The position numbers were made by a program, and so were the translations under genes. DNA of 64,000 nucleotides. Origin: a virus. This document shows positions 23,090 to 60,353 of this stretch, in pieces; the stretch's first letter is position 1; each line of letters opens with the position of its first letter. Location: IMG/VR virus record IMGVR_UViG_3300037467_003078; one strand, 5' to 3'. The notes below the pieces were generated by a model. The model saw nothing but the letters and a program-made list of their open reading frames with translations, was not told the origin of the DNA and ran no database searches.

Positions 23090-23357
23090 TAGCAATAAAC
23101 TTGTGAATTTGCTTTTCAATTACTTTAGCAGTAACGAACAACTTAGCTGTCTTTGGTAGTTTAGCATAGATATACCTTGCAAGTGCAGGAGCATTTTCAT
23201 CTATGTTTTCAAGAACTTCATGCTTAACAGTTCCTAGATGGCTAAGAACGAAATTCAGTGCTCTCTTTCTTCCCACAAGAAGTACACTAGCAACCACAAC
23301 TACTATTCCTGAAAAAAGTTCTTTGTTCTCAGTTATATATTGTAAGATTTGTTCCAT
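23076..23357 (-). CDS. Small membrane protein downstream of the endolysin (holin-like accessory)
   Basis: Single N-terminal TM segment; last gene of the late operon. Confidence 0.5.
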   Translation of the reverse strand: MEQILQYITENKELFSGIVVVVASVLLVGRKRALNFVLSHLGTVKHEVLENIDENAPALARYIYAKLPKTAKLFVTAKVIEKQIHKFIATLDK

Positions 23358-41000: not shown

Positions 41001-43629
41001 GTAGCGAATCAATGGAGTTAGCTACGATGTGATTACCTGATATTGTATTACCTTTGATATTCTGACCTTCGATAGTGCTACCACTAATTTGAGTACCAGT
41101 TATTTTGCCAACTGTAATTGTATCAGCGTTTACACTTGCTATTTTAGCATATTGGATAGTAGCGTCTTGAATCAATGCGTTAGTGATATTACCACTTGCT
41201 ATATTAGCAGTTTTGATTTCAGCGTTACCAATCTTGGCATTTGTAATTGCACCGTCAGCAATATTAGCTGTTTGAATAACTGCATTTGCTAGAATACCTG
41301 ATTGAGCAGTAATTGTACCTGCTTGAATTGCAGAGGCAGTAATACTTCCAGTAGTAATAGTTTGACCATCAATTACAGTGTTACCTTGTGTATAATATTT
41401 AGAAGGAACAACTTCTTTTACTAGAGATGGTTTTGTCCATTTTACTATTGCCATTGCTCCACTAGTACCTTCTGTCATTTCTGCTAAGAAAGGATACCAG
41501 TTTCCTTGTGTAAGAGAAATAGTCCCTGTTTGCTCTACCCCACCTGAATAAGAAAGTTGATTTACAACAACAGTGTTATTGACAACTACTTTTCCTAAAT
41601 CATCAGCAGTTAAATGGAATGAGTAAGTCCCTGTCTCAGGTGCATAGATGAATCCTTGCCATCTTACTGAGAAACTATCATTCTGACCTACAATAGCAGG
41701 AGAACCTGTTCCCCATGAGAAGTTAATAGTAGGGTCTATTTGACTACCCTTGTAAACTTGGAATTTACTATTTCCACTTGCAGAGTTATATGTAAAGTAT
41801 TGTCCTAGCAATCCTTCTTTTCTACTTCCCACCGTCAAATGGTCTGTGTCTACACTTCCTGCTTGAATGTGATTACCTGAAATCTCATTAGCTTTAATCA
41901 TTCCACCAGTGATTGTATTTGCACTAATATGTTGAGTCTGAATAGAGTTAGCAGAAATGTGTCCTGATTGAATAGAATTTGCACTAATATGACTAGATTG
42001 AATTGAGTTAGCGATAATATGACCTGCATTAATAGAGTTAGCTGAGATATGACTTGACTGAATTGAGTTAGCCGAGATATGCTGAGACTGAACGCTATTA
42101 GCAGAGATGTGACTAGAAGTAATAGAGTTAGCAGAAATTTGTGTAGCAGTAATACTTCCTGCCTTAACATGCTTAGTATCAATACTATTTGCAGTAATGT
42201 GGTTTCCACTAATTGTGTCAGCTTGAATATGCTTACCTTGGATAGTGTTAGCAGTGATATGATTACCACTAATCGTATCAGCTTTAATTTGACTACCAAC
42301 AATCGTATTAGCTGAAATGTGTTGCGTTTGGATTGCATTCGCTGTTATATGACTTGCTTGAATTGAATTAGCAGAAATGTGATTTGATTGAATCGCATTT
42401 GAAACGATATGACCTGCATTAATAGAGCCTGCACTAATATGAGCAGATTGAACACTATTTGCAGATATATGTTGTGCTTGAATCGCATTTGCAGTAATAT
42501 GACTTGCAGTAATATTATTAGCAACAATATGGTATCCAAAGATTGAATCTGAACTAATCTTACTAGCAGTTATTGAGTTAGCAGAGATGTGATTAGTTTG
42601 AATACTGTTTGCACTGATATGTTGAGATTGTATTGCATTAGCACTGATATGTGTAGATGTAATACTTCCTGCTGAAATGTGTTGTGCTTGAACAGCGTTA
42701 GCAGAGATTAGTGTAGCATTAATTACCCCTGCTTTAATATGGCTAGCGTCAATACTGTTTGCTGAAATATGTTGTGATTGAATTGCATTTGCACTAATAT
42801 GACCTGAATTAATAGTTCCTGCATTAATATGGTTTGAATTGATAGCATTAGAACTAATGTGAACTGATTGGATTGCGTTCGCAGAAATCTCACTAGAAGT
42901 TATGGAGTTAGCAGAAATATGGCTAGCATTGATAGCGTCAACTTTAATCTGACTAGCAGTAATAGTGTTTGCCGAGATATGTTGAGTTTGGATAGCGTTA
43001 GCACTTATTTGTCCTGCTTGAATAGCGTTTGCTGAAATATGTTGAGTTTGAATAGCGTTTGCTGTGATATGCGTTGCGTTAATGGAGTTAGCACTAATTT
43101 GCGTTGCACCTATTGCTCCTGCTTGAATATTCTGTGCTTGAATCGCACCTGCTTGTATCTTGTCAGTCGTGATACTATTAGCAGACAACTGAACAGTAGT
43201 AATAGCGTTAGCAGTAATGTGGTTTGCATTAATAGAGTTTGCTGAAATGTGGTTTGCTTGAATAGATTCAGCAGTAATGTGTCTAGCCTCTATCGTATTT
43301 GTTCTGATGTGGTCTGAGTTGACTACACCACTAGCTATGTCACTTGTAGAAATAATAGTAACATTATCATTGATGTCTCGCAGTCCTGTAGACATGCTAG
43401 TTCCACCTTTTGCTAATGGCTGACCATTTCTCCATTCAACAGTAGCCCAATCACCTAATTTAGGTATATATGAATTATCACAGTTAACAGCCTCTAGAAT
43501 GTACCCTGTTCCACCCATATCTAGATTAACTATTTTGTCACTAATTACACTTACTACTTCACCGTAATCAGCGTAGGTGTCATTTGTGTTTGTTGAATAT
43601 TTTAAGTATCTGTTGTTAAACTTACTCAT
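35077..43629 (-). CDS. Giant tail spike/central fibre (2850 aa): OB-like N-terminus, 10-aa beta-helix repeats, PA14, YVTN-like beta-propeller, F5/8 (discoidin)-like domain, fibre C-terminus
   Basis: Repeats ISAN(S/A)IxxxH; PA14 GLLGQYF...FSVRWQGFIYAPETGTYSF; propeller blades (VGKGP, VGDSP, VGSKP, TGANPKG); QWVKVDLGKVY...EVSEDGVTW. Confidence 0.85.
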   Translation of the reverse strand: MSKFNNRYLKYSTNTNDTYADYGEVVSVISDKIVNLDMGGTGYILEAVNCDNSYIPKLGDWATVEWRNGQPLAKGGTSMSTGLRDINDNVTIISTSDIASGVVNSDHIRTNTIEARHITAESIQANHISANSINANHITANAITTVQLSANSITTDKIQAGAIQAQNIQAGAIGATQISANSINATHITANAIQTQHISANAIQAGQISANAIQTQHISANTITASQIKVDAINASHISANSITSSEISANAIQSVHISSNAINSNHINAGTINSGHISANAIQSQHISANSIDASHIKAGVINATLISANAVQAQHISAGSITSTHISANAIQSQHISANSIQTNHISANSITASKISSDSIFGYHIVANNITASHITANAIQAQHISANSVQSAHISAGSINAGHIVSNAIQSNHISANSIQASHITANAIQTQHISANTIVGSQIKADTISGNHITANTIQGKHIQADTISGNHITANSIDTKHVKAGSITATQISANSITSSHISANSVQSQHISANSIQSSHISANSINAGHIIANSIQSSHISANSIQSGHISANSIQTQHISANTITGGMIKANEISGNHIQAGSVDTDHLTVGSRKEGLLGQYFTYNSASGNSKFQVYKGSQIDPTINFSWGTGSPAIVGQNDSFSVRWQGFIYAPETGTYSFHLTADDLGKVVVNNTVVVNQLSYSGGVEQTGTISLTQGNWYPFLAEMTEGTSGAMAIVKWTKPSLVKEVVPSKYYTQGNTVIDGQTITTGSITASAIQAGTITAQSGILANAVIQTANIADGAITNAKIGNAEIKTANIASGNITNALIQDATIQYAKIASVNADTITVGKITGTQISGSTIEGQNIKGNTISGNHIVANSIDSLHIKAGAITTTELSAQSITSDKIQAGSITADSIRVGSIRAEHISTVGLDANIVSVYNPTTGQTLIGGGYLRVDGLDVGVVQSDNLVGNGLFLTASSAFGSKRDNPYGEVLLGNTRAVVGGNQVWKINVTTGQKVQVIDIPSSKPADVSIHPSGNYAYVTVQGDDTVAQIDLATDLLTTNTLSVGKGPNVIKWVGMKLMDMKHFLVLNRDPDDMNVPDTLNVIDSPPTSVNADLYVHHFIPLGNGPYDLVVDDNMQIYVTMADDGDIVVIDASAHDSSTWKVKGRLPISAYGTDNYHGGLPANFGLNEVTGGDASYQYNDAGMAGMVDMPGMSHSHGGYGTSDGSLKTYQPHGIALSSDPNHLYVVDNKNGELVVVDKLGNAPYNALIGTSPNGSFSYGMDMHMDMSSGGTMPGMDMGFGPSPEHLKEMGIASGGGPGTYHVRYRIPVGDSPDFIEIINGKIFVTLEGTGDIAIIDEQKILDEIALDKAYYGNFVEGGVFEKWNVFQPMRDVNAIPVRTISVGSKPSFTDVANGKLFVSLSGQNQVAVINPTTETVTQYINTGANPKGFAFTPDNQYMYVANFGGSGDLSMVYPKGEYIGDAFLGLEGGVVYQGAEWWTPDRSDWVYDASGNVKSRSTVEFRINEPFLNEGGYAKLTTFGKDYQYAQIEQDIYNVSNYSNGDNKLNVKAEKLIQGTGTGNIFYPRNEWLNSPVPSNINIGNVVSGSTILTPANPSKYTIYYGQNARIEFSANTLVSGNWIEADYTCKNDIYFKPHNGSALVAIENGSSPNFNVTMEIDEFVPKFVVYDNQLTATTFTPTADGINQTYTGLEYSTITNRALGMTVTSSVAPTSGGALSKIVDGGEVMSVHGDNTANPLPSSTGTLTFPSGNQWVKVDLGKVYMVGMIQVAHSYGLDRVYQGTKTEVSEDGVTWTTIYDSAVSGTYSEKISYHAPHNHTHYAKTFTFGAKPVRYVRDWANGWKSGDGLTSGSTNNWTEIQVFGDWELEKGYTYPANSELAGQQIATNGKGFVSTDISKAYIAVDIPIEYTTWWYMSYIVGPDFGRIKIDMPTAMGGSHFLELESPFVNKVAHRHIMPFTPSQNIKANDAMNIKAGKHRAVIMQDSGRVTVDRLRFEDYQYLTRSSLLIPSQSTSTIFRRNKLVAEQAKWYQGMGVQSTEGAFDKPRVNPDTGIPDKSVPIKYRMRFRTELNANGTIEERGTAYFTSAIFETGKLSTHWRRSESVDSYPAHKIEKWDGNQPHKTGIQHDHLANGAVRGTKIMPNTIMDWHISNYARIQEHKLELNHPTHAHGKYQVLAGQGPMGTDLYLWKDNSDLLNSMDGWAGTSGNYGTGNTVSRGDHKHDDLYLSLATGGVMKGHIDFGPNNALGLKFGSVANGAVGYIRQSATQGQLDLGSDDLINFYESDSNTLAVSISTNGKTLDAKGGLLENGVALSSKYAPIAHVGSGGSAHAVAVSGGANGFIDGANYGKLLRIQDNAINQTTADGRYIQLNGSTGILSVGGGGGALSLKATSTDHIYMAIYARSGNSTRSGWFGYGTNGNNTMQITNETSGNINISTVGGGLVQVNGSTIWTSANFDPSTKSDTTHVHAVAISGGANGFMSGSDKAKLDGVATNANNYSHPTGDGNLHVPATSTTNSKKVLTAGATAGSLSWANVDYADVINKPTTFTPSAHTHTASNITDLYSNIYTKTEVDTAVSNAGDIKAGQANIFTNTNTFNKAGLGIKIQPSSSVANSTKLFQINNATSSEVFSVNYSGGVVIAGDFTVTGQQIISGTTNVNGDYTISGQLIVGGNSTLGDASTDVTTVNGTLKVQNGSIQEIGKYNEVHRRPIYGIGGDLQFQTDSTVFDDITDYYDLSSYALPTVQAGATRYYRLYVVYSDDITSAQQTGGQKATIRIAGATNKDLDLPITFGLVNGRRDWFSAYFTDLPTGNGKIQAKLALANNNLGIRWIELVAYDKF
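41835..43340 (-). repeat. ~50 tandem 30-nt (10-aa) coding repeats, consensus I-S-A-N-(S/A)-I-x-(A/S)-x-H
   Basis: Visible in both the translation and the DNA (recurring gcagaaat / gcactaat / ttgaat). Confidence 0.9.
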
Positions 43630-47446: not shown

Positions 47447-50400
47447 TTAGTAGGAAGTTCCTTTCCATGATAAGTTACCTAATCTTTGTTGACGCTTGAA
47501 CTCAGTCATAGCTTTTTCAACAGATGTTTCGACAACTTTTTCGATTCCTTTTTGGTCATAATCTCCACCTTCAACAGTTACATTGACATTGATATTGATT
47601 CCTGCACCGTTGCCCTCAGCAGTTGCTTTAGGTACTGTGTTACCAAGTAAAGTTGCTAATTGCTTAGGTTGTAATGCTATCTCACCTTTTTGCATAATAG
47701 CTTGAATCTCATTCGCTTTAAGTTGTTGACCATTAGCAAAATTCATCATTCCTGCGATACCACCAGTATGATAAATATAATCTTTACCAACATAACCTGT
47801 CTTACCTTTGTAGCTTACTTTCGCCCAACCTTTTTCCATTCCTAGGTAATTTACCTTAGCACCTTTAGGTAATACACTCATTACCTTTCCTCCCGGACTA
47901 CTACGGAAATTAAGTGCTTGCTTAGTAGTCTTAGTAGTTCCTTTGCTACCTGAATTAGAATTACCTTTGCTACCCGAACTACTTCCACCGTTACCCTTAT
48001 GAATAACAGCCCAAGTGTCCTTACCAACTACACCATCTGCTTTAAGTCCGTGTTTCTTTTGGTAAGCCTTAACAGCTCTTTCAGTATCAGAACCAAAGAT
48101 ACCGTCTGCCTTAACTCCTACAGCCCTTTGGATTTCCTTAACAGCCTCACCTCTATCTCCTTTGTTAACAGTCCCATGATTATGACCTGAGCCTGATGAA
48201 CCTTTGCCACCCGAAGATTTAGGAGGTGTATTAACCTTAGAGTTGTCAGTTGTAGGATTCTTAACAGCACTTCCACTATCAGGTGCTCCTGCTCCACCCT
48301 TACCAGTGTTAGGTGTTCCACCAGTTGAACCCGGTGTCCCTGTTGGTGGTTTAGATGTACCTCCCGGAACTCCTCCCGGTGTTGTTCCCGGTGGTGTAAC
48401 TATAGGAGTATTACTTCCAACTCCTCCAATAGGAGAACCTGCCTCATTAGTTTCACCATTTTGTTGCCAGTTCTTAACACCTTCAAAACTCTTACCTTTA
48501 GCTTGGTCATATAAGTATTGGTCAATTTTGAATCCTTGTGGTGCATTAAACAGTTGGTCTTTCATGATAGAGAATATACCATCTGTTGAGGCAACAATTT
48601 GTTCGATTAAAGGTAGGAACGGTGCTAGTGCGTTATTAATTTGGTCTCCGAAGTTGTTATTGTTAAACATATTAGCAATATCATCAGGGTTTCCAGTTGT
48701 AGCCGCAGTAGTTACCGAAGTGATTAAGTCATTAATAACTTTCTGTAGACCAGTGTTATTAAGTAGCGTAGCTGATAGTTGAGAAGCTATAGTTGTTGCT
48801 AATGTCTGCTTGATACCATCTATGAAACCTTGAGTAGAATCCATGTTGCCCATGAATCCACTTGCTAGTGCATTTGACAGGGATTGCTCAAAACCTTGAG
48901 AGATAGAATCAATCATTTTAAGAGCATTTTCTTTCTGTTCATTTTGCACATCACGAAGGTCAGACATTCTATCTATGTACTCTTGAATAGACATAGCACC
49001 TGCTTTAAAAGCACCAATAACAGCTTGACGATACTCATTCATTTGACTAATTAAAGCGTCTTGCAAACCTGCTATAATTTGTAGTGTAGCCAGTTGTTGA
49101 TTTTCGTCCATACCTTTAGCACCTGACGCTCTTTTCAGTTTGTCATTAGTAAGGGTTTGTTTAGCAACATTAAGGTTTCTTCTGTTTTCAGAGTAACTTT
49201 TGCTATTCAGGTATGCTTGTTGATTAATATATGTTTGAGCACCTTGACCAGTCATCTCAAAGTATGCCTTAGCATTTTCAAGTCTCTTTTCATCAAGTTC
49301 ACGAAGTTCTTGATATACTGCAACTACATCTTCAAGAGTAGAGTACCAATTCTGAGTTCCTTGAGCGAATGAATTTAAAACCTTTTGAATTTCTTTCAGT
49401 TTAACAAACGCAACATTGATGTCCTCTTGGTCTGACTTTCTCTTTACTGCATTGTAGTGACCAGTTTCAAGACCTGTTGTATTCCAAAATTCACCCATTA
49501 CTGATAATCGTTTCTTAGTCGTCATGTACTGATTATTCATACCATTAAGTTCTTCAACTGTACGATAGTAATCAGTAGTTCCGTCTTGCATAGTAGCTAA
49601 CTTATTGTACCCACCTTTTATGTAGTAACCTGCATTACTAGCATTATATCTAGGGTCTCCTTGAAGTGCTTTTACTAACTCTTTATCCCACTCGTCTAAT
49701 TTCTTATTGTTTTCTTTTAAAGTAGCAATAAGTTTGTCAATAGAAGATACAGCCTCTTTATTCGCATTATATTCGTCAGTTTTACCTGCCTTCAATGCAC
49801 TATTAGCGTCCTTAACATATTGAGCACGAGTTTTAGAAAGTGCTTTCATTTGCTCTACATTACCGTACTTAGCGTCATAGATTTCTTCTCTAGCTTGATA
49901 GTTTCTATCATAAGCACCTAATCTACCAGTTGTACCTAGTACATCACGGATATTACCATGACCATAACCCAATGTCTTGTCTTTATTGTATGACTCTTTA
50001 ATTGTTGCAACATTGTTTATAGCCATTTCAGCCTCGATTGCCTCTTTAAACATTCCAAAAGCAGTTTTAATCATCTGTGCTACTGTTGGCACATCTGCAC
50101 CTAGAGCACCTGCAACACTGCCTCCTGATGTTAATCTAGCATTAGCACCGTCATATCTTTTGCCTCCAACAAAGTCGCTTCGTAATGCGTCCTTTTTAAG
50201 TGGTGCTCCACTCTTATTAGGACCTCCACTGTTCATACCAATGTATTGACCGTTTCCTGCATAGATACCAGTGTGAGTTACTTTGCCTCCACTACCAAAA
50301 TAGACTACATCACCAACTTGTAGGTCTGCTTTATTTGTAATCCTTTTACCTTGGCTATTTTGCCACATGCTATTAGACGAACCAGTTCCTAATTCTACTC

Positions 50401-53400
50401 CTGCAAATTCTCTATAGAAATGTTGAACAAGTCCTGAGCAGTCAGCTTTAGCTTTTTTGATAAATGAATCCCAATCTCCTTTATCATGACCTCCACCCCA
50501 AGAATATCCTAGACCTCCTTGAGAAGCAGATTTATTAACTAGACTATTAAGTACTGCCATTCCACCTTTTCCAACACCTGATGTACTTGAAGAAGATGAA
50601 CCTCCACCTATACCTAATGAACTCCAAGTTTTAGAACCTACAATACCGTCAGCAGTTAGCCCATGACTCTTTTGATAGCTTTTAACAGCTTTTTCAGTTG
50701 CAGAACCGAAGATACCGTCAGCATTAACCCCTAATGCTTTTTGAAGTTCTTTAACTGACGCTCCTTTAGAACCTTTTCTAATAGTTCCGTAAGATGATGA
50801 TACTGATGTACCTCCACCACCACCTAATGCAGACATAGTTGTTCCACCTAGCAATGACTCTTTAGATGTACCTGACATACTAGAGTAGATACTAGCTACA
50901 CCGTATTTCCAGTTAGGGTCTTCTGCATACTTGCTGTTAATTTTAGGAATAGTATCATATCCTTGGCTGATATATACATCTTTTAGTAACCTAGCTAAGT
51001 CATTAATACCTAATTGTAGAGAACCGTATTTTCTATATGTTAGTCCGTCTCCCGGATTAACCCACTTAGTACCGTTCCACTCAGCATTAGCTTTACCAGT
51101 ACCTTTGATGTTACCAACATTATAAGCACCATTGATTACTCCTGATTTACCACCAGTTTCTTGAACTGCGATAGACGCTAAGAACATTGGGTCAATACCA
51201 TATTTAGCACCTGCTTGAACGAACATATTTCCAGTTCCTTGAAGTTTAGTTCTTCCAGTTTTGCTAAAATAAGAATTTATTTTTTCAGTGTAATCTGCAA
51301 CTGCCTTATTATTACCAACCGAAATAGTTCCTCTATTAACTTCTTTTTTGATTTCAGCAGGAGTCATACTAGCTTGCATTTGTTTCTTCATAGAGTTAAA
51401 CTCTCTAGTTCCTTTTTTATACCCGAATTGCTGAGTAATATAAGCGTCTAGTTTTTCAGCGTCAGTAGCATTTTTAGTATTGATACCACCAGTGAATCCC
51501 GGAATTACTGAACCACCAGTTCCAGTTGTTCCTGCTAAATCAGATTGGAAATTTTGAGACTGTTGAGTTAGAAGTCCACTAGTTATATTGTTTGCCCAAT
51601 ATGTTAGTACTTGGTCTAGTTTACCTGCACCATCACTAATAAGGTTTCCTGCTTTAGTGAAATCATTTTGTATTAAGTCTTTAAGTGGTTGAATGAACGC
51701 ATTGTCAAATTCTCCACCCATAGACTTATTGATTTCATCATATGCCTCAACAAGTTTCTGTTCGTCTCCTGCATAAGTTTTAAGAGAAGTCATGATTTTC
51801 TCGTATCCATCTAATCCTCTATCACGGATACCTTCTAATCTACTATTTCTATCTTGAATATAAGAGCCTCCTGTAACAGCACTTCTTATATTAGAGAAAT
51901 TGTTAACTAATGATAGGTCAGTTTTAATGCTAGCAATCTCGTTGTTTAGGTCTTTTACTAGTTGAATACGGTTTTGAACTCTTTCCCACACATCAGCATA
52001 CTTATCAGAATTAAGCACCATTTCTTTAACTTGGTCTGCTTGTTCCTTCATAGCAACTGTTGTAGAGTTAATATTGTCATGAATACTATATTGTTGTTCT
52101 AGTAGTTGCTTGTAAGCATTTTGCTCTGCTGATAGTCCGTTCTCTCCCGGATTATATAGTGTGTCGATTGAGAAATCTTGACCTCCATTTTGAGCCTTAA
52201 TTCTACTCATTTGAGCGTAGACAGAATTTAATTGTGCTCTGTATGCAGATAACTCAGTAGATTGAGATTTTAGTAGGTCTCCACTTCTCTTGATTTTTTC
52301 TTCGTCTGTATTCGATAAATCAAGTAGAGTTTTGGCTTTACCAGTACCAAACTGTATAGCACTAATCTTAGCATTGAATACATCAATCTGAGATTGAGAC
52401 ACTAGTAATTGAGCAGTTAACTGTTTCAATGCTTGTTGTCTCTCAAGTATAGCCATATTAGTTTGTAGAATTTGAGCCTCTGTTTCTTTGTCTGCGTCTA
52501 CAAATCCTGCATTAGATTGTTTGTATGACAGATATTCACTAACTGCATATCTCTTAGCAAGTTCTTTTTCTATATCTTTCTTACTCATACCTGCTTTTTT
52601 AAGTTTGTCTCTAGTTTTATCTGTTACTTCATACTGGTTAGTGATAGTGTCTGCGTTTCCTGAATCATAGGCAAGTTTATAAGTTTGGTCTAAGTCGTCC
52701 ATTTCTGCCTTAGACATTAAACCTCCTTTTATAATCTTGTTTCTTTGACCAGTAATTTTAGTGTCATAAATTCCTGCTTGCTCTTTAAAGTGGTTACCTT
52801 TGTCAGTTAACTCAGTAATAGTTCCACTTAAATCAGACATAGCACCATTGATAAGGTTAATCTTAGCAATGCTAGCACTTGACGAGTTTTCAGCACCCAT
52901 AAAGTTAAAGTCAATTTTAGACATATCGTAACCTAGTCTGTTCATAGTTCTATTGAACTTCTCAGTTAAGTCATTAATTATACCTAATTCTGTTTGATAT
53001 TTAATTGCCTCGTTGTTAGCGATTTTCCACTTCTCTGCTATTTGAGCGTCTTTATCTAAGCCCTTAGCACCTAAAGTGTCAATCATATCCTTCCAACCGC
53101 CTTTGTCATCGGCATTAAAATGTTGTTTATATATCTTGCCATCTTTTCCTTCGGCATTGTACGCTATAGTACTAGTGTTGTTACCGTTTAATCCTGCGAC
53201 AGTTGAGTAAGTAATTCCCATTTCAGAGAATTGTTTTTGAAGTTTTTCAATCTCCTTGGGCATTTTATTTTTCTTAGGTGGTTCGCTCGAAGGCATTGGG
53301 TTTCCGTGGAATGAGCCATTTCTAGAAACTATTACAGTTTTGTTTTTGTCATTCCAGTCTTTCCAAGTATTTAAGTCCTTAGCTAATTTCTCTTTGTCTT

Positions 53401-56400
53401 CTTCTCCACCACCATATACCTTGTTGAAGTTTTTGAACTCGCCTTTCCTTACATTAGCCTCATGCTTTTGATTCATGTCCCATAGTTTCTTACCTACCCA
53501 AACAGCAGTTCCTATGACAGCACCTATAGCACTTAATCTAAGCAAGATTCCTGCAAACCTACCTAGTATTGGAAGTAATCCTTTTAAAGAAGTTCCTAGT
53601 TTAGAGAATAAGTTTGTTGCTACATTGCCTCCAACTTCACCTGCTTTAGCAACATTAGCACCTCTTTTGAAAGGATTGCCTCCCATAAGTACCCAACCTA
53701 CTGCCTGACCGATAACATTTCCTACGCCTGAACCTTTTCCAGTATGAGGAACTTCTACATTAACTTTCCTTTGAGTTCTTCCGTTGAAAGAGGCACGAGT
53801 AATCATTTCTCCTTGAGTAAGAGCACCTATTAATGAACTACCACCTTGAAGCAATCCAGTTCCAAGTTGAAACTTTTTCATCGTAGCAGTTACTAATTTA
53901 AATGCACCTGCTAATGCTAAAATTTGTGTCACATATTTAGGAATATTGAATCCAAATATTTTCTCACTAGCGTCACCTAGTCTAACAATTATATCTAGGA
54001 AACCATTTACTGTTTGAACAGCAACTTTGAATCCACCAAGCAATGCTTTAAGACCATCTAAAGCACCTAGTTCAGCTAATAGTTCAACCGTCTCAGTCAA
54101 TTCTTGCTTTAATTGACCGAACTGAACTTTAGCAGTTTTTAGATAAGTATCAAGTGCATTGTCAGCTAATCCAGTGCTAGTCATATTCTTTTTGAATGTT
54201 TCAGCATATTCAGAACCACTAGCGTCTAAGAACTTTTGAATCTTAGGTGCTTGCGATATACCTTTACCATTAACAGATGACAAGTCTCTAGATACAGATT
54301 CTTTTTGTGTATCACTCAAACCTTTGTAATTCTTAACAACTAAGTCTAATAATTCTTCTTGAGAATAGTTTTGAGTTGTATCAATGCCTAGTGTTTTCAG
54401 ACCTGATTGGATAGACTCACTATCTTTATATCTAGCTAATCCACCGAAGAATGTTTTAGCAACTGTTGTCATATTAGAGCCACTTGAATCACTATCAGAT
54501 AAATTGTAAGCACCTAGCATACCTGCTACTCTCCTAGGGTCTATACCTTTCTTAATAGCGTCAGGAGCAACTTCACTCATAGCGTCCATAATGTTGTTAG
54601 TGTTGACACCACTACCATTCATTAGAGTCATGAAGTCTACGAATCTATCCATGTCGTATACATGTTGTTGACCTTTTCCTTTGTATAGCCCTTGATATAG
54701 AGATAACATATCTTGAGATATACGATTAACATCATCTGCACCTGCATTAGGTCCTAATGTAATTGCACTATATTTTAAGATTTGGTCTGTAATCTTATTT
54801 GCCAACACAGGGCTAGGCTTATCTCCATTACCTTTAATCAGCTCACTTCTAGCCATAACTTGTTGATAAACTGGCATTACAGTGTCAGTAGCAGACATTC
54901 CGTATTTTTGAGAAAGATTTGATACATCTCTGCGAGTATTATGCTTTATGTTATTTTTACTATATCCGAAACCTGAGTATGCTTGGTTTAGACCACCATC
55001 TCTTAGGTCTGTAGTTAGCAATTGAATACGAGACATTTGAGCCTCAAAATCAATCATACTTTGAACAGCTATTTGAATACCTTGACCCATAGCCATGAAA
55101 GCAGTCGTAATACCTGCATATTGCATAGTGTTTCTAAGAGTACTCATAAACTTGTTAGAACGGTCAACAGCGTCTCCGAATCTAGTGAACTCATACTGTG
55201 CGGTTCTAGTTCTAGAGATGGTTCCATCAGCATTACGATTAAATACTTCAAATGAACGAGTTAGGTTTTGATTCATTTCCCTAGCTAATCCACCTGCATT
55301 TTGCTTTAATCTTTCAAGAGCCTCTAACTTGTCATTCTTACTAGCGTCAGGATTTCTTAAAACCATTTCATCATCAAGAATGGTTTTTTGTCTGTTGCCA
55401 CCGTATCTATGTACAGCACCATTCCACTCAGCGTCTCTCCTAGCTTGTTGTTGTTGTCTAGCACGGTCTTGGTCATACTTTCTATTTAGAGCGTCAGCTT
55501 GCTTATGTGCTCTTTCTATTTCCTTTTGTGCTTGTTGTTCAGCTAGTCTCTGAGCCTTTATTTGTGATTGAATCTGTGCTTGAACATTAGAGTTGGTATT
55601 CATTACAACTCTGCCTCTAGTTGCGTTCATAGGGTCAACTAATGGCTTACGATTGTAATAGTTGTTAGGTAATTGGTTTAAGATTGCATTGTCAATCTTA
55701 TCTCTTTCTCTTTGGAACTTTTCTACCTTTTTTCTATATGTGTCTAGTTGACCTGATAATGCTTTTTGGTCATTAGTAGATAGTGTTCTCCAATTAGAAC
55801 CGTTAGCCTTTGACTCTAGTTGAGTTAGAGTATCTTGTGCCTTAGTCAATCTTCTAGTTGATTGGTCTCTCATTTTGAAAAGGTTTGTATTTTCTCTGTC
55901 TAACTTAGCTTGCTTTTCCTTTTCTTTTGTGATAGCCTGTTCAACTTGTAATTCAGTTTTTTGTGCTTGAGCATTTTGCCTTCTAGCACTTGCCATATCC
56001 TTCTCTGCCTGAGCCTGAGCCTTAGCATTAAGTAAGTCTTTGTCTGCTGTACTTCTAGAGCCAACTGACGCAGTTCTATCGTTAACATGGTCACGGAAAC
56101 TGCCTACTACCTCACCGTTTCTAGTTGTTCTAGTTCTACTAGTGTTTACAACTTCTTGTCTTAAAGATTCTATTTGACCTTTAACAACTCTTAAATCGTT
56201 TTGGTCTATTTTTAATCCCACAGTCATAGTTGCTTTGATGTCGCCAACTTGTTTCTGTACTTTTTCTTTTTCGCCCTTGTCAACTTTAAGAGAGGTCTTA
56301 ATATTTACATTTTCTTTGCTATTATTAATATTGTTAAGATGGTGCTTAACATTGTCTACTTGTTGCTTTAAAGCCTCAGCACTTTTATTATCAAGTTCCA

Positions 56401-56653
56401 TTTTGATTTTAATCTTAGGTGCTTGACTTCTGTTGAAGTTGGTAATTACTGCCTTTACTTCTGATTGTAAGTTATTTAAACTAGCACCTTTATCAATACT
56501 GATAGGTAGTTTGATACCACCTTTACCAGTTTTATTGAAATGGTTGCGTATGGAAGTATCTACATCTTTTACATCTTCTAATAATTTTTTTAGAGAGCCT
56601 GTATTTAACTTTAACTCGGTATTAATAATATACTTAAAGTCTTTTCCTGCCAT
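47447..56653 (-). CDS. Tape measure protein (~3068 aa) with glucosaminidase-like, NlpC/P60, 2x PG_binding_1 and SH3b domains
   Basis: Start moved to ATG 56653 (RBS AAGGAGGT). Long helical body; AGAKYGIDPMFLASIAVQETG; ADCSGLV...HTGIYAG; GSKGASVKELQKAL..ADGIFG; LNFRSSPG...GWAKVSY. Confidence 0.93.
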   Translation of the reverse strand: MAGKDFKYIINTELKLNTGSLKKLLEDVKDVDTSIRNHFNKTGKGGIKLPISIDKGASLNNLQSEVKAVITNFNRSQAPKIKIKMELDNKSAEALKQQVDNVKHHLNNINNSKENVNIKTSLKVDKGEKEKVQKQVGDIKATMTVGLKIDQNDLRVVKGQIESLRQEVVNTSRTRTTRNGEVVGSFRDHVNDRTASVGSRSTADKDLLNAKAQAQAEKDMASARRQNAQAQKTELQVEQAITKEKEKQAKLDRENTNLFKMRDQSTRRLTKAQDTLTQLESKANGSNWRTLSTNDQKALSGQLDTYRKKVEKFQRERDKIDNAILNQLPNNYYNRKPLVDPMNATRGRVVMNTNSNVQAQIQSQIKAQRLAEQQAQKEIERAHKQADALNRKYDQDRARQQQQARRDAEWNGAVHRYGGNRQKTILDDEMVLRNPDASKNDKLEALERLKQNAGGLAREMNQNLTRSFEVFNRNADGTISRTRTAQYEFTRFGDAVDRSNKFMSTLRNTMQYAGITTAFMAMGQGIQIAVQSMIDFEAQMSRIQLLTTDLRDGGLNQAYSGFGYSKNNIKHNTRRDVSNLSQKYGMSATDTVMPVYQQVMARSELIKGNGDKPSPVLANKITDQILKYSAITLGPNAGADDVNRISQDMLSLYQGLYKGKGQQHVYDMDRFVDFMTLMNGSGVNTNNIMDAMSEVAPDAIKKGIDPRRVAGMLGAYNLSDSDSSGSNMTTVAKTFFGGLARYKDSESIQSGLKTLGIDTTQNYSQEELLDLVVKNYKGLSDTQKESVSRDLSSVNGKGISQAPKIQKFLDASGSEYAETFKKNMTSTGLADNALDTYLKTAKVQFGQLKQELTETVELLAELGALDGLKALLGGFKVAVQTVNGFLDIIVRLGDASEKIFGFNIPKYVTQILALAGAFKLVTATMKKFQLGTGLLQGGSSLIGALTQGEMITRASFNGRTQRKVNVEVPHTGKGSGVGNVIGQAVGWVLMGGNPFKRGANVAKAGEVGGNVATNLFSKLGTSLKGLLPILGRFAGILLRLSAIGAVIGTAVWVGKKLWDMNQKHEANVRKGEFKNFNKVYGGGEEDKEKLAKDLNTWKDWNDKNKTVIVSRNGSFHGNPMPSSEPPKKNKMPKEIEKLQKQFSEMGITYSTVAGLNGNNTSTIAYNAEGKDGKIYKQHFNADDKGGWKDMIDTLGAKGLDKDAQIAEKWKIANNEAIKYQTELGIINDLTEKFNRTMNRLGYDMSKIDFNFMGAENSSSASIAKINLINGAMSDLSGTITELTDKGNHFKEQAGIYDTKITGQRNKIIKGGLMSKAEMDDLDQTYKLAYDSGNADTITNQYEVTDKTRDKLKKAGMSKKDIEKELAKRYAVSEYLSYKQSNAGFVDADKETEAQILQTNMAILERQQALKQLTAQLLVSQSQIDVFNAKISAIQFGTGKAKTLLDLSNTDEEKIKRSGDLLKSQSTELSAYRAQLNSVYAQMSRIKAQNGGQDFSIDTLYNPGENGLSAEQNAYKQLLEQQYSIHDNINSTTVAMKEQADQVKEMVLNSDKYADVWERVQNRIQLVKDLNNEIASIKTDLSLVNNFSNIRSAVTGGSYIQDRNSRLEGIRDRGLDGYEKIMTSLKTYAGDEQKLVEAYDEINKSMGGEFDNAFIQPLKDLIQNDFTKAGNLISDGAGKLDQVLTYWANNITSGLLTQQSQNFQSDLAGTTGTGGSVIPGFTGGINTKNATDAEKLDAYITQQFGYKKGTREFNSMKKQMQASMTPAEIKKEVNRGTISVGNNKAVADYTEKINSYFSKTGRTKLQGTGNMFVQAGAKYGIDPMFLASIAVQETGGKSGVINGAYNVGNIKGTGKANAEWNGTKWVNPGDGLTYRKYGSLQLGINDLARLLKDVYISQGYDTIPKINSKYAEDPNWKYGVASIYSSMSGTSKESLLGGTTMSALGGGGGTSVSSSYGTIRKGSKGASVKELQKALGVNADGIFGSATEKAVKSYQKSHGLTADGIVGSKTWSSLGIGGGSSSSSTSGVGKGGMAVLNSLVNKSASQGGLGYSWGGGHDKGDWDSFIKKAKADCSGLVQHFYREFAGVELGTGSSNSMWQNSQGKRITNKADLQVGDVVYFGSGGKVTHTGIYAGNGQYIGMNSGGPNKSGAPLKKDALRSDFVGGKRYDGANARLTSGGSVAGALGADVPTVAQMIKTAFGMFKEAIEAEMAINNVATIKESYNKDKTLGYGHGNIRDVLGTTGRLGAYDRNYQAREEIYDAKYGNVEQMKALSKTRAQYVKDANSALKAGKTDEYNANKEAVSSIDKLIATLKENNKKLDEWDKELVKALQGDPRYNASNAGYYIKGGYNKLATMQDGTTDYYRTVEELNGMNNQYMTTKKRLSVMGEFWNTTGLETGHYNAVKRKSDQEDINVAFVKLKEIQKVLNSFAQGTQNWYSTLEDVVAVYQELRELDEKRLENAKAYFEMTGQGAQTYINQQAYLNSKSYSENRRNLNVAKQTLTNDKLKRASGAKGMDENQQLATLQIIAGLQDALISQMNEYRQAVIGAFKAGAMSIQEYIDRMSDLRDVQNEQKENALKMIDSISQGFEQSLSNALASGFMGNMDSTQGFIDGIKQTLATTIASQLSATLLNNTGLQKVINDLITSVTTAATTGNPDDIANMFNNNNFGDQINNALAPFLPLIEQIVASTDGIFSIMKDQLFNAPQGFKIDQYLYDQAKGKSFEGVKNWQQNGETNEAGSPIGGVGSNTPIVTPPGTTPGGVPGGTSKPPTGTPGSTGGTPNTGKGGAGAPDSGSAVKNPTTDNSKVNTPPKSSGGKGSSGSGHNHGTVNKGDRGEAVKEIQRAVGVKADGIFGSDTERAVKAYQKKHGLKADGVVGKDTWAVIHKGNGGSSSGSKGNSNSGSKGTTKTTKQALNFRSSPGGKVMSVLPKGAKVNYLGMEKGWAKVSYKGKTGYVGKDYIYHTGGIAGMMNFANGQQLKANEIQAIMQKGEIALQPKQLATLLGNTVPKATAEGNGAGININVNVTVEGGDYDQKGIEKVVETSVEKAMTEFKRQQRLGNLSWKGTSY

Positions 56654-56745: not shown

Positions 56746-57186
56746 TTAATCGTAATCCACACCATTAAACTCATACGAATCACCGTCTCCATCACTTGCA
56801 ACAAGGTCTTCGTAGTATTCTTCGTCTGCGTTATCGAATATGATTACTTCATCGTATTCTAGAGCACCTCTTGATACTGTATTAGAGGTATCTCCTTTCT
56901 TAGCCCTTTTCTCCATCTCTCTAGTCTTATCTTCTACCCACTTATCTAGTAGGTCATCGTTGTTTATGACTTTCATAGGTGGTCTCTCAGGGTGTTCGTA
57001 AATATTATCATAAAATGAGAACCAGTATGCAAGAGCAACTTGTGATGGATTCCAGTCGGCTACTATACCACCAAATAGAGGTGAACCAGTATCTTTACTA
57101 GCTTTCCATCTTGCTCTCCATTCTGCTCCAACTTCTCCCTGCCCCCTAGCTACTTCTCTCAGAACCCTATTCCGAATGGAAGGCAA
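56746..57186 (-). CDS. Tail assembly chaperone, T-like (C-terminal) segment; probably not initiated independently
   Basis: Lies between the G-like gene and the TMP; the only possible start is a TTG four codons after a TAG, preceded by CTCCTC rather than an SD. Confidence 0.7.
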   Translation of the reverse strand: MPSIRNRVLREVARGQGEVGAEWRARWKASKDTGSPLFGGIVADWNPSQVALAYWFSFYDNIYEHPERPPMKVINNDDLLDKWVEDKTREMEKRAKKGDTSNTVSRGALEYDEVIIFDNADEEYYEDLVASDGDGDSYEFNGVDYD

Positions 57187-57405
57187 ACGAGGAGAAATCT
57201 ATTGTCTTTCATAAGCAATATTTCTACCTACCGTTATTTGTGAACTAAAGCACCTTGTCTTGGGGGCAAGGTTAGTATAGCTACTACAAGGTCAGGCTTA
57301 TTTGTTAAAGTGTTGCCTAACACATTAGGATACCTTTGCTTGGTTCGCTATGCTACTTATTATCATATCTCTATGTATCACAGTACGATAGTAGTTATTT
57401 ACTTA
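57187..57405 (-). other. Structured non-coding intervening sequence between the chaperone segments
   Basis: Six in-frame stops; multiple hairpins (GUGUU-AGGC-AACAC, ACCUUG-N9-CAAGGU, UAGUA-GCUA-UACUA); the 3' end pairs with 57435-57447. Confidence 0.6.
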
Positions 57406-58077
57406 TTACTCCTCAGTAGTTTCTACTTCGTCTGTTTCTCCTTCGTCCTCAGAAGGGCTTGCAAGGAAGTCGGCAGGTAAGCCATTAATAAATGTTAAAA
57501 ATTGGTATACAATCATATTAACAGTTTGTTGGTCTTCTTCTTCCTTAAATTCAGCATATTTATTCCATACAGGTTTACCATTCTCTGCATATTCTGTACA
57601 CTTATGAATTAAGAATGACATCTTAGCCTCGTCAGCTTTTGCCTCAGCAGTATTATTGAAATATTTTTGCTTTTCTTGTTGTAAAGCAAACATTTCATCA
57701 CGAAGTTCTTCAATCTTCATCTCGATAGGCAACATGTTTTTCTCTGTTTCCATCTTAGATAGCAATGTTAATTGCTTATTGATTTCTTCACGAATCTGCT
57801 CAATACGCTCGTCATCTTTCTTAGTCCATAGTTTTTTCTTTTTAATTAATTCTTCCATTTCACGATTAGTTGGAATGTCGTCCATAATAGCTTGTTGGAA
57901 TACTTTAGAATACTCCCAATCTGCTAATCGGTTCTCCTCTACCTTTGGATAGCGAATTTGTAGTAAACCGTATTTCTCACTGTCAAAAACTCGTCTTCCA
58001 GTTTGAACCTCTGTCATTTTTTCACGCTTATCCTTATTGCTCATTTCCTGACTTTCTTTCTTTTTAGCCTCTGCCAT
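57406..58077 (-). CDS. Tail assembly chaperone, G-like
   Basis: Helical, charged protein with an acidic tail, upstream of the T-like ORF and the TMP. Confidence 0.75.
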   Translation of the reverse strand: MAEAKKKESQEMSNKDKREKMTEVQTGRRVFDSEKYGLLQIRYPKVEENRLADWEYSKVFQQAIMDDIPTNREMEELIKKKKLWTKKDDERIEQIREEINKQLTLLSKMETEKNMLPIEMKIEELRDEMFALQQEKQKYFNNTAEAKADEAKMSFLIHKCTEYAENGKPVWNKYAEFKEEEDQQTVNMIVYQFLTFINGLPADFLASPSEDEGETDEVETTEE

Positions 58078-58107: not shown

Positions 58108-58138
58108 TAAAAAAGAGACATTATTAGAAAATGTCTCT
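58108..58138 (-). terminator. Intrinsic terminator upstream of the G-like chaperone
   Basis: AGAGACAUU-N7-AAUGUCUCU-UUUUU. Confidence 0.8.
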
Positions 58139-58169
58139 TACGGTTTCAGTAGTTAGTCCTTACGCAAAA

Positions 58170-58705: not shown

Positions 58706-60241
58706 CTATTGTCTAATTAAAGCACTTTGTAGTTCAAATACAGTGTTTGCAGTTCCACCATTTGCATATCTAACTCTTACATATCGAGATATAACCATAT
58801 CTTCTAGTGTGGTAGGAGTATTAGCAGTAACATTTGCTGTTGCTGTTGTTCTCCATGTTGAGCCATCTCTTGATTGCTCTAGATATACTGTTCCTGTTTG
58901 GTCTGCAAAAACCAGTGCTCTATGTCTATTAATTGAATGATTAGAACCTAAGTCTAGCGTAGTACCTGTAAATGTAGCCGATATTCCTAATGCTGTAGTT
59001 GAGTGAACAAATGTCATTGATTTATCAAAGTCGATTGCTCCGTCTTGACGAACATACATTCCCTGAATAAAGAATGATGTTTGTGCAGTAGAACCATTGA
59101 TAAATTTCCAACGGAAATACCTAGCTGTTATAGGCAAGTCGAAAGTACGATAATTTCCATCAGAAGGAATTGGAATACGATGTGTCTCCCTAAAGTTAGT
59201 GTTGTCAGTGGAAATTTCAAATGTTAGATGACCGGGTACTAAACCTGCTGTATGTTGAACAGAAACCCTAAAACGATTATATAATTGTGTACTAGAACCA
59301 TTGTCAATGGAACTAGCAGTGTATGTAGCACTCGCACCTAAGTTTGTTGTTGAGCTTGAGCCTAGAACACCTGCTACAACATATTGAGTAGGTGTGTTTA
59401 ATACTTGGACTCCGATTGCTTGACCCGGAGATGAAACACCTCTACCTGCTGTAATTTCAGCAGTTAACTCAGATGAATCCATAACAGTAACAAAATTAAC
59501 CTTTAAGTCTGTTGCTGACGCAGGAGCAGTACCTAAGTTCTTTGCTCTAATACGAATCTTATATAAAGCAGTTGGGTCAGGAGCAGAGTTCTGACGAACA
59601 AACGAAGCACTTCTACCATTAGCACTATCTTGTGCTCTAGTGTGAAACCACACTTCATCTGAAAACAATTCAATCTCGAAATTTTGATATGAAGTTACAG
59701 CATTAGCAATATACTGAGCAGATGAAGCCAACATTGTACCTCCGCCATTTTGAACCTCATACACTCCATACTGTGCACTTGAGTTATCAGCGTAGTCAAT
59801 TCTCCAAGACGCTTTATTTAAACCATCTGCTACTAGAGTAACAGGGTCAACAGATACAGCCTCAACATAGAATTGTTGATTTACTATTTTCTGAGAAATC
59901 ATTAATCCAATCATAGCACGAAATGGGTCTGTAAAAGCCTCCGTAGATTGAATAATAGTCTCCGAGTTGATTGTAGTGCCTGTATTAATTTTTAATTCAC
60001 TATTGGCAACTGTTATAGTATGACCTGAGCCTGTTTGAAGAACTTCCCATTTACCTGCATTTAATACTGAGCCATTAAAGTCTGCTCTCCATTTTTTTTG
60101 CAATGATTTTATTTTAAACATATCATCTGCTTTATCGTATGCTATGCTTTCTTTTACAGAAGTATCAGTGATAGGTTGATTTTGTCCATTGTTTCTTGCC
60201 GATGTGTATATCGTACCTTGTTGATTTAAAAAATCCGGCAT
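58706..60241 (-). CDS. Virion-associated beta-rich protein (tail decoration / lectin-like) with a duplicated C-terminal domain
   Basis: Start moved to ATG 60241 (RBS AAGGAGGT). Two C-terminal repeats (LGASATYT...EISTD..FR...ARYFR / LGISATFT...EQSRDG..WR...SRYVR). Confidence 0.6.
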   Translation of the reverse strand: MPDFLNQQGTIYTSARNNGQNQPITDTSVKESIAYDKADDMFKIKSLQKKWRADFNGSVLNAGKWEVLQTGSGHTITVANSELKINTGTTINSETIIQSTEAFTDPFRAMIGLMISQKIVNQQFYVEAVSVDPVTLVADGLNKASWRIDYADNSSAQYGVYEVQNGGGTMLASSAQYIANAVTSYQNFEIELFSDEVWFHTRAQDSANGRSASFVRQNSAPDPTALYKIRIRAKNLGTAPASATDLKVNFVTVMDSSELTAEITAGRGVSSPGQAIGVQVLNTPTQYVVAGVLGSSSTTNLGASATYTASSIDNGSSTQLYNRFRVSVQHTAGLVPGHLTFEISTDNTNFRETHRIPIPSDGNYRTFDLPITARYFRWKFINGSTAQTSFFIQGMYVRQDGAIDFDKSMTFVHSTTALGISATFTGTTLDLGSNHSINRHRALVFADQTGTVYLEQSRDGSTWRTTATANVTANTPTTLEDMVISRYVRVRYANGGTANTVFELQSALIRQ

Positions 60242-60353
60242 TTTATTACCTCCTTGTTTATTTAACGTTCTAGCCCCCAAAAAATTGAGGGCTAAAGGCT
60301 ATAGTATGTCATTTAGACTATATACAGACCAACCTGTTCCTAGGTCGGCTGAA

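Follow-up and report, generated by a model that had tools for sequence, protein, structure and literature searches.

How is the long form of a putative tail chaperone made when the two reading frames that encode it neither overlap nor adjoin? The question is raised by a soil phage (IMG/VR record IMGVR_UViG_3300037467_003078), from which a stretch of 64 kb, here called the window, was analysed. In phage lambda, the short and long chaperones G and GT are reportedly produced by -1 programmed frameshifting, an account attributed to Xu, Hendrix and Duda (2004). In the window, two frames that we call G and T occupy positions 58077-56746 on the minus strand. They lie directly upstream of a tape-measure-like gene, the position typical of lambda-type chaperones, and the same is true of all relatives. 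The genes are laid out as follows.

57406..58077, minus strand: G ORF (from the ORF list), 223 aa, the short product of standard decoding
57408-57406, minus strand: stop codon of G, inside the gap described below
57186-56746, minus strand: T ORF (from the ORF list), 146 aa
56746..57159, minus strand: T part of the proposed long form, 137 aa, beginning with AGA (Arg, 57159-57157) and ending at the stop 56748-56746
47447..56653, minus strand: giant tape-measure-like protein immediately after T, 3068 aa counted from the ATG at 56653

The 3068-aa protein carries Glucosaminidase, NlpC/P60, PG_binding and SH3 domains. No tRNA genes were found in the 64-kb window.

A sequence-only reading of this DNA had described G and T as non-overlapping, in the same frame and 219 nt apart, with the in-frame stops TAA, TAA, TAA, TAA, TGA and TAG between them. 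All of this was confirmed. The remaining two frames of the gap are closed as well, with many stops each, and the sole start of T is indeed a TTG four codons past a TAG, without an SD. The shared frame holds for the window but proved to be a coincidence: in relatives T occupies all three frames relative to G, the excess lengths of 70-306 nt leaving 0, 1 or 2 when divided by three.

Might ribosomes simply read through or shift frame across the gap, or might T be an unexpressed, decaying remnant? The chance agreement of frames in the window, and in one relative (L013) where a single TAA parts G from T, is what such ideas have in their favor. They must contend with the six stops that interrupt the shared frame in the window, with the closure of every frame by stops and with a T that can follow G in any frame; on these grounds, readthrough and frameshifting were excluded. 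Decay is countered by strong purifying selection on T, which keeps 31 invariant residues while their codons vary. We find this group of explanations scarcely credible.

Are G and T, then, parts of one protein? The sequence-only reading had named single fused homologues, to be sought with G and T separately, as a sign of a join, and such homologues exist. T has 1048 homologues, most of which place it at residues ~195-320 of single-ORF proteins of 300-400 aa; about 1000 hold both halves in one ORF of ~330 aa, and the N-terminal halves of these contiguous proteins are homologous to G. The homologues of G number 73, all of ~220 aa, and are conserved through FINGLPADFL and variable beyond. In a joint alignment, the single Leu of the contiguous homologues shares its column, without indel, with two residues: the Leu that closes the conserved part of G and the one preceding REVARG. 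The join is thus fixed at ...NGLPADF-L-REVARG, and two codons for one leucine define its edges:

57463..57465, minus strand: proposed take-off codon CUU, Leu205 of G, aligned with the single Leu of contiguous homologues
57160..57162, minus strand: proposed landing codon CUG, Leu; CTN at every locus

G residues 1-205 are common to the long form, and residues 206-223 are an acidic tail encoded within the gap. Protein conservation of T begins exactly at the Arg after the landing Leu, a residue that does not vary among 50 contiguous homologues (R198 of P0079). When a contiguous protein was modelled with AF2 (pLDDT 91, pTM 0.80), the join fell inside a helix, residues 194-202, of a single compact fold. 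We conclude from these comparisons that G and T are two halves of one tail-assembly protein, and that both the position of the join and the need for a non-standard way of making it are established.

The idea of a non-standard join, neither frameshift nor readthrough and best fitted by bypass, thus stood, while the codons, distance and product first suggested for it did not. The junction had been put near NGLP/ASP-SIR, and homologues put it at DFL/REVARG. The shift is 303 nt instead of a hop of 273 nt, and the product is 342 aa rather than ~352 aa with the junction ...DFLASP/SIRNRVLREVARG. The alternative U/...G/ splice junctions at 57474 and 57184 likewise find no support in the homologues.

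All 73 G homologues are annotated at ~220 aa, with 'chorismate mutase' as the name of some; the T part is missed or assigned an arbitrary start, and gene callers sometimes pick a chance GTG or TTG for it (P0074, P0076). One UniRef entry calls a homologue 'Tail assembly chaperone'. No family in Pfam or PHROGs matched G, T or the contiguous homologues. A Foldseek search of the AF2 model against PDB and BFVD gave nothing at E <= 0.001, only weak rows naming tail assembly chaperones, and blastn and tblastn searches of a phage GenBank collection with the region, G and T gave no match.

The gap-bearing arrangement was compared across 18 distinct related loci. Variants of it turn up in assemblies of independent origin, from IMG/VR, JGI, Logan and NCBI isolates, and an assembly artefact was rejected on this account. 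A search for RNA runs containing the window found none. Sequencing runs over a Paenibacillus-type relative, probably DNA and so uninformative, gave only contiguous gap contigs and no joints. Sister lineages reach the same end by other routes: L016, L037 and L036 use -1 PRF at C_CCA_AAC, two codons upstream of the same spot, and L041, L040 and L015 carry two adjacent paralogous genes encoding 223 and 329 aa. The wider family mostly has a plain single-ORF long form beside a paralogous short gene. We conclude that the sister lineages need both a short and a long form.

What, then, lies between the two Leu codons? In the window, the intervening stretch is composed of these elements:

57163..57462, minus strand: skipped gap, 300 nt, covering the codons of the G tail, its stop and then a structured interior that does not code
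57418..57459, minus strand: 5' strand of the closing stem, starting 4 nt past CUU and containing codons for Pro-Ser-Glu plus GACGAAGGAGAAA
57202..57405, minus strand: gap interior, structured and clade-specific, with a GUGUU/AACAC-type hairpin and a conserved UAUGAAA motif
57163..57201, minus strand: 3' strand of the closing stem, ending in a G-rich, SD-like GGG at 57167-57165 plus UU directly before the landing codon

Gap lengths in the 18 loci run from 67 to 303 nt (67, 69, 70, 71, 89, 102, 228-229, 269 and 292-303 nt), with stops in all three frames, and T lands in any of the three. Judged by the contiguous homologues, the stops and the frames, the gap is an undecodable stretch between two parts of one protein. 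In every locus it forms one closed folded domain. The whole stretch in the window has a folding energy of -85.5 kcal/mol (z -3.6), and the closing stem, 57459-57418 with 57201-57163, contributes a pairing of -30 kcal/mol that only 1 of 300 shuffles equalled. Across loci, the stems range from -22 to -34 kcal/mol (z -3 to -8), beginning 4-11 nt after CUU and ending 0-10 nt before CUN. Compensatory changes occur in 12 of the 27 closing pairs, 93% of which are canonical, a result matched by none of 500 permutations. The stem includes G-U pairs, so the structure belongs to the RNA, on the sense strand.

A helix of GACGAAGGAGAAA with UUUCUCCUCGUU enclosing the gap had been proposed earlier; it is real and covarying, as the second tier of the longer closing stem. 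Two interior pairings suggested with it fared differently. GUGUU/AACAC covaries (GGUG/CACC, GUGC/GCAC, GUGCUU/AAGCAC), whereas CCUAA/UUAGG is not conserved. The 3' strand of the closing stem also supplies an SD-like element in every gap: a run of GGAGGG, GGGGGG or GGGG ends 2-7 nt before CUN at all loci, and in short-gap relatives the strand reads GGAGGG or GGGGGG, 3-7 nt 5' of CUN. These SD-like bases double as the closing strand, which makes their role ambiguous.

The interior differs between lineages. The window-type interior is conserved only in the window's clade (7 loci); those of L029/L042, L034 and L044 are unrelated, and short-gap loci have no interior insert, giving at least four unrelated sequence classes. 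No other copy of the interior occurs in the 64-kb window, which speaks against an obvious repeated mobile element within it. Rfam returned nothing relevant for the gap (E up to 10) or for eight relatives (E up to 1).

Perhaps the gap is a small self-splicing intron, group I or another canonical type, in a once-contiguous GT gene? The gene is usually contiguous, a 5' exon would finish with the U of CUU, and the interior in the window's clade is both structured and conserved. Yet neither Intron_gpI nor another Rfam intron matched and no catalytic core was recognized; gaps of 67-102 nt are too small to hold one, and the interiors belong to at least four unrelated classes. A terminal G is not conserved either, the last skipped base at protein-restoring junctions being U, A, G or other. 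A canonical self-splicing (group I) intron was excluded on the 67-nt gaps, the unrelated interiors, the missing 3'-terminal G and the lack of an Rfam match, and introns of this general kind appear very improbable to us.

We turn now to the two Leu codons. All 18 loci have CTT for take-off; of the 61 columns with an invariant residue, no other uses just one codon. The landing codon is CTT in nine loci, CTA in eight and CTG in one, and never TTA or TTG, whereas at other invariant Leu columns TTR makes up roughly one-third to three-quarters of the codons. In L014, a T-frame stop sits immediately 5' of the landing codon. The two codons, matched within the CUN family as in known bypass, are identical in nine loci and differ at the wobble base in the other nine. 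On these codon counts, both Leu codons are constrained at the nucleotide level. At every locus, the 12 nt leading up to the landing codon are free of CUN triplets. CUN triplets are not depleted across the whole gap, which makes linear anticodon scanning of the gap unlikely. What follows CUU is an ordinary sense codon, different from locus to locus (GCA, GUA, GUU, AUU, UCA, CAA, UCG, GAA, UUC, UAU or GAG), with neither a stop nor a slow codon in the A site. LPADFL is conserved in gap-bearing loci only, which is just suggestive of a nascent-peptide signal.

The sequence-only reading had put the hop elsewhere, from CCU at 57456 to CCU at 57183, on the strength of matched CCU-UCU and CCU-UCC pairs. 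The pairs are present in the window, but relatives do not keep these Pro-Ser codons, and in L006, L012, L031, L032, L034 and L044 the T frame has stops at or after the CCU position and before conserved T. We rejected the CCU-to-CCU hop because of these stops. A 'stop-hop' starting at G's final sense codon and landing on a matching codon in T was rejected upon inspection of the sequences: it finds no matching in-frame codon in L013, L014, L026, L027, L030 and L038, and would also lose the invariant Arg.

Could the RNA be joined before it is translated? The closed domain might be cut at the base of the closing stem and its flanks ligated through some unknown route, either dependent on a protein or a new form of self-processing, leaving a GT message beside the unprocessed G message. 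The covarying stem does bring both junctions together, frame independence and the tolerance of unrelated interiors suit a structure-guided cut, and the invariant CUU could be a requirement of the cleavage site. Conservation is lacking at the termini, however: the gap may open with GCA, GUA, UCA, CAA or other triplets and end with CUU, CUA or CUG. The interiors match no ribozyme family, are non-homologous and shrink to gaps of 67 nt, and excision fails to predict a landing Leu limited to CUN, the codon family of the take-off site. We know of no bacterial or phage pathway for precise excision of a hairpin from single-stranded flanks. We consider RNA-level excision unlikely.

Alternatively, the gene may be truly split, with a separate T of ~137 aa that associates non-covalently with G. 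Ribosomes would start, or restart, weakly at CUN or close to it, using a non-AUG codon and aided by the SD-like run. In short-gap loci, the G stop, the GGAGG-like run and CUN are spaced as at an ordinary gene junction; chance GTG or TTG starts have been called (P0074, P0076); and the gap contains a weak promoter-like match (57244-57217). The number of promoter-like matches (10 against 5.9 +/- 2.7 expected) is not above chance, however, and the T frame opens just 12-60 nt before ARG, with no canonical start conserved in 18 loci. CUU and CUA are two positions off AUG. Where the gap is long, just 2 nt separate the G-run from CUN, the stem locks the run up, and the G stop lies more than 200 nt away. 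A split would leave the fixed CTT of Leu205 unexplained, and the modelled join inside a helix of one compact fold argues against two separate chains. For these reasons, we regard a split gene as doubtful.

Since G and T are parted by a folded plug with matching Leu codons at its edges, the long form is probably made by a ribosome hopping over the plug. Programmed translational bypass is, to us, the best reading of these sequences, with about an even chance of being correct. Standard decoding would yield the 223-aa short form with its acidic tail. In a fraction of ribosomes, peptidyl-tRNA-Leu would detach from CUU (57465-57463), the ribosome would cross the entire 300-nt closed RNA domain, and the same tRNA would re-pair at CUG (57162-57160), directly past the SD-like 3' strand of the closing stem. 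Decoding would restart at AGA and give the 342-aa long form ...NGLPADF-L-REVARG..., whose predicted tryptic junction peptide ends in ...FLTFINGLPADFLR, followed by EVAR. Bypass would thereby set the short:long ratio, as -1 frameshifting does for lambda G/GT. We infer the agency of the ribosome in the join (as against an RNA-level event), its efficiency and the role of the SD-like run.

A fuller version, in which our confidence falls slightly short of even, is that the ribosome skips, in one shunt-like move, an entire closed RNA domain measuring as much as ~300 nt, from the CUU foot to the CUN foot of the covarying stem, possibly with capture by the SD-like 3' strand. It would set the ratio of short to long tail chaperone, and the gap would be modular, accepting unrelated inserts across lineages. 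Several observations sit uneasily with bypass. An ordinary sense codon follows CUU, a position filled in gene 60 elements by a stop or hungry codon; the distance of 300 nt is sixfold that of the longest established bypass; the landing and take-off codons differ by wobble in half of the loci; and the short-gap order 'stop, GGAGG, 4-7 nt, CUN' resembles an ordinary intercistronic junction. The hop would also require the folded domain to be handled as a unit, and we know of no precedent for this in elongating bacterial ribosomes.

To our knowledge, established programmed bypass comprises only a handful of cases (T4 gene 60 and cassettes, yeast mitochondrial byps and probably the Hau3 terminase), all of <= 55 nt. 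If bypass operates here, it would be by far the longest ribosome hop known, raising the distance limit about sixfold, and the first to yield two useful products, as frameshifting does in G/GT. The natural variants, with frameshifting and two-gene relatives as controls, would then serve to study how ribosomes cross folded RNA. A join at the RNA level would instead represent a novel type of RNA splicing in bacteria or phages. Annotation is affected too, given G homologues that all end at ~220 aa and T parts that are missed or mis-started.

How does this locus compare with known systems? Programmed translational bypass in T4 gene 60 was reportedly first described by Huang et al. in 1988. The tape-measure gene of mycobacteriophage Corndog has no usable start after an HNH insertion; its authors named bypass as a possibility, and RT-PCR found no splicing (PMC4351075). 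Corndog shares with our locus an apparently non-canonical expression at the chaperone/tape-measure junction. It differs in that the gene is tmp, the insert is an HNH gene, there is no evidence of matched codons or a closing stem, and the phage group is unrelated.

The Magnusiomyces mitochondrial 'byps' and the terminase of Streptomyces phage Hau3 have gaps of 10-55 nt (PMC10732093). As here, blocks are inserted in conserved coding sequence and skipped in any frame, and local RNA structure draws the landing codon near the take-off codon. Those systems serve insert neutralisation or rare-tRNA sensing, whereas here gaps of up to 303 nt apparently serve two products.

Lambda G/GT (reviewed in PMC5009743) likewise adjoins the tape-measure gene upstream and makes a short and a C-terminally extended product with a common N-terminal part, and our sister lineages use a -1 slippery heptamer at the same place. 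Unlike lambda, the window has no ORF overlap or slippery site, and neither sequence nor fold searches detected a resemblance to known chaperones.

The closest comparison is with T4 gene 60 and its cassettes (10.1101/2022.08.31.505936). The gene 60 gap is ~50 nt as against 67-303 nt here, its take-off is followed by a stop or hungry codon, and its take-off hairpin includes the take-off codon, whereas the covarying stem lies 3' of CUU. In our loci, the 5' portion of the gap is also translated, as the tail of a second, short product, and the whole gap is one closed domain with its stem flanking both codons. No sequence similarity was seen, and the gene and host group are others (Paenibacillaceae-type soil phages here). 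In both systems, the two parts of one protein are parted by a non-coding gap with mRNA structure. Both gaps also contain an SD-like element shortly 5' of where the ribosome lands (an SD is present in gene 60 elements as well; 10.1101/2022.08.31.505936), with no competing landing triplets immediately 5' of the landing site.

Re-examination of the two minus-strand ORFs, G and T, bore out the description in the sequence-only reading. They share a frame and are separated by 219 nt containing six in-frame stops, the remaining two frames of the interval are closed repeatedly, and T has no SD, its sole start being a TTG shortly past a TAG.

58077-57406, minus strand: G ORF, 223 aa
57186-56746, minus strand: T ORF, 146 aa

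The element is a soil/rhizosphere phage of ~160 kb with relatives in Paenibacillus and Chengkuizengella assemblies. The protein next after T (3068 aa) carries glucosaminidase, NlpC/P60, peptidoglycan-binding and SH3 domains, the make-up of a Gram-positive phage tape-measure protein. Since an intrinsic-terminator-like hairpin and T-run (58113-58139) stands just 5' of the G start, G, T and the tape-measure gene may begin a transcription unit of their own. A 524-aa ORF (58706-60280), whose C-terminal part forms an F5/8 type C (discoidin) carbohydrate-binding domain, sits between a 507-aa tail gene and an 85-aa gene; it looks like an inserted extra gene, because in Paenibacillus-type relatives a ~500-aa gene directly adjoins a ~80-aa gene, with no counterpart between. 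Elsewhere, an intergenic-looking motif of ~45 nt (TTATATTATA ... TTATAA ... GTCAAGGGT) recurs in at least seven places (3986-4026, 12132-12172, 14381-14432, 14906-14953, 19269-19309, 21536-21583 and 23043-23090) and may be a phage-specific promoter or regulatory site. At least 24 copies of an imperfect repeat with a 30-nt period form a long array within a coding region (41862-43302), which presumably encodes a 10-residue repeat of some tail or fibre protein.

Neither G nor T matched a Pfam family, a PHROG family or a GenBank phage. Several G homologues (P0027, P0031, P0032, P0057, P0058, P0064 and P0070) are named "chorismate mutase" by JGI; the name finds no support in Pfam and was probably carried over during annotation from a false hit to a helical protein. 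Searching for fused homologues of T, as the sequence-only reading had proposed, was productive: an exhaustive HMMER search returned 1048 homologues, mostly single ORFs of 300-400 aa matched by T at residues ~195-320, and the N-terminal halves of the contiguous proteins are homologous to G. All 73 G homologues from a word-index search are about 220 aa long and conserved up to FINGLPADFL. In a joint alignment, contiguous proteins read ...F-x-x-G, five residues, then L-R-x-x-A-R-G. Window G reads ...FING, LPADF and L before its acidic tail diverges, while conservation in T begins exactly at L-REVARG. Both window Leu residues align, free of indels, to the one column that holds the contiguous proteins' single Leu. 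The Arg that follows is invariant in 50 diverse homologues, and an AlphaFold model of a contiguous homologue (pLDDT 91, pTM 0.80) places the join Leu-Arg inside helix 194-202 of a well-packed fold. From the collinear alignment and the invariant Arg we infer a join between the following codons, each placed by joint alignment with contiguous homologues.

57465-57463, minus strand: take-off Leu codon CUU
57162-57160, minus strand: landing Leu codon CUG
57159-57157, minus strand: resumption codon AGA (Arg)

The window's mature long form should thus be G residues 1-205 plus T from Arg10, 342 aa. The Pro-Ser junction and 352-aa product suggested earlier do not fit this alignment.

Judging from its gene layouts, the wider family appears to need both a short and a long form. 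In L016/L017, L037 and L036, relatives with 39-44% identity, T overlaps the G tail in the -1 frame, and a canonical C_CCA_AAC heptamer precedes the position of the window's CUU by two codons. L041, L040 and L015 instead have a contiguous long gene with a paralogous short gene (223-230 aa) directly upstream. Hence, the gap arrangement would be a third way to the same pair of products. This supports the earlier analogy to G/GT chaperones as regards function, although we detected no similarity between the family protein and known chaperones.

IMG/VR, JGI metagenomes, Logan assemblies and NCBI genomes together yielded 18 distinct loci that carry the gap, which we counted from after CUU to before CUN. 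Gaps measure 67, 69, 70, 71, 71, 89 and 102 nt in the short class, then 228, 229 and 269 nt, and 292-303 nt in eight loci, one of them the window. Relative to G, T can occupy any of the three frames, so the shared frame in the window, though true, is a coincidence. Across the 18 loci the T frame opens only 12-60 nt 5' of the ARG motif (in L014 a stop directly precedes the landing codon), and T has no conserved start codon. These observations rule out readthrough or frameshifting as the general mechanism. One long-gap locus, the metagenomic relative L034, carries a tmRNA gene (3740-3894; Rfam RF00023, 74.6 bits, E 2.5e-27), truncated at the end of the contig, shortly past its T part, where other loci have the tape-measure gene; the phage may carry the tmRNA, or the contig may be chimeric.

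At every locus, the ~45 nt that follow CUU form a duplex with the ~45 nt that precede CUN (-22 to -34 kcal/mol; z -3 to -8 versus shuffles). In duplexes and whole-gap folds alike, pairing begins 4-11 nt 3' of CUU and stops 0-10 nt 5' of CUN, and the MFE fold of each whole gap is one closed domain. The first tier sets Pro-Ser-(Glu/Ala) codons of the G tail opposite a G-rich run.

Examples of the first tier of the closing stem, 5' arm / 3' arm
CCCUCCGCA / UGCGGAGGG
CCCUCCACA / UGUGGGGGG
CCCC-UCUGAG / CUCAGA-ac-GGGG
CCC-UUCUACAC / GUGUAGA-uu-AGGG
CCC-UUCUGA / UCGGAA-ua-GGG (window)

RNAalifold on nine long-gap sequences gave 27 closing pairs, 93% canonical, with compensatory double changes in 12; these values were not attained in any of 500 column permutations, and pairing fell to 33-60% when the partner was shifted by 1-3 columns. 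The first tier recurs in six short-gap sequences, with A-U replacing G-C and C-G replacing U-A. G-U pairs assign the structure to the sense RNA. The 12-bp helix previously seen to enclose the gap is real and forms the second tier of this longer, covarying stem.

By sequence, the gap interiors form at least four classes that cannot be aligned with one another (the seven-locus window clade, L029/L042, L034 and L044), and short-gap loci have almost no interior. Since, in addition, no Rfam family matched the gap and no protein-restoring junction has a conserved terminal G, a group I or other canonical self-splicing intron is excluded. Whatever the agent, joining depends on the flanks and the closing stem; RNA excision by an unknown route guided by that stem seems to us unlikely. 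The window clade conserves its interior, including a covarying hairpin (GUGUU/AACAC, GGUG/CACC, GUGC/GCAC); this interior probably just keeps the domain compact. A UAUGAAA motif (57211-57225) is kept across the long-gap sequences of alignment A3, even in the otherwise unrelated L029 and L034 interiors; its ATG opens no conserved ORF.

Codon usage was compared across all 61 columns with an invariant, degenerate amino acid in the 18 loci. Sixty use two to six codons each; the sole single-codon column is the take-off Leu, CTT in 18/18. The landing Leu is CTT (9), CTA (8) or CTG (1), never TTA or TTG; in the four remaining invariant Leu columns, those two codons account for about a third to three-quarters of the total. 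This is what one peptidyl-tRNA-Leu re-pairing at a matched codon would predict. In the ARG motif (57142-57150), the Gly codon is GGG in 17/18 loci and the Arg codon mostly AGG, even though codons at other Gly columns are free to vary. In the RNAalifold structure this G-run is paired with the take-off CCUU, and it may add a further RNA-level signal 12-20 nt 3' of the landing site.

The observation is real and far from chance. Perhaps T is simply made separately, by weak initiation at CUN? The stop-GGAGG-CUN layout of short-gap loci speaks for this, but the invariant CTT in G and the long-gap geometry would go unexplained, and we think it rather improbable. We favor programmed translational bypass, giving it about an even chance; the long-distance hop first proposed was thus partly right, with its junction corrected. 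One peptidyl-tRNA-Leu would leave CUU and re-pair at the matched CUN, with decoding resuming at AGA. Bypass would explain why the two Leu codons match, why T may lie in any frame, why an SD-like run stands just before the landing codon, why the final 12 nt ahead of that codon contain no CUN triplet, and why the recoding position is conserved and common to the frameshifting relatives. On the other side, CUU is not followed by a stop or hungry codon, the skipped distance is unprecedented, and CUN triplets are not depleted over the whole gap. Given the last point, the ribosome would pass the folded domain as a unit, not by scanning.

The prfB +1 frameshift site likewise has CUU as its shift-prone P-site codon, with an SD-like AGGGGG placed 3 nt before it. 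Gene 60 cassettes show the same matched-codon pattern, wobble tolerance included (10.1101/2022.08.31.505936). The literature searched contained no report of bypass in tail chaperone genes, the nearest case being the unresolved Corndog tape-measure oddity (PMC4351075). On comparative grounds, the G-T join stands as a strong candidate, open to direct testing, for a new form of programmed translational bypassing that spans a much longer distance.
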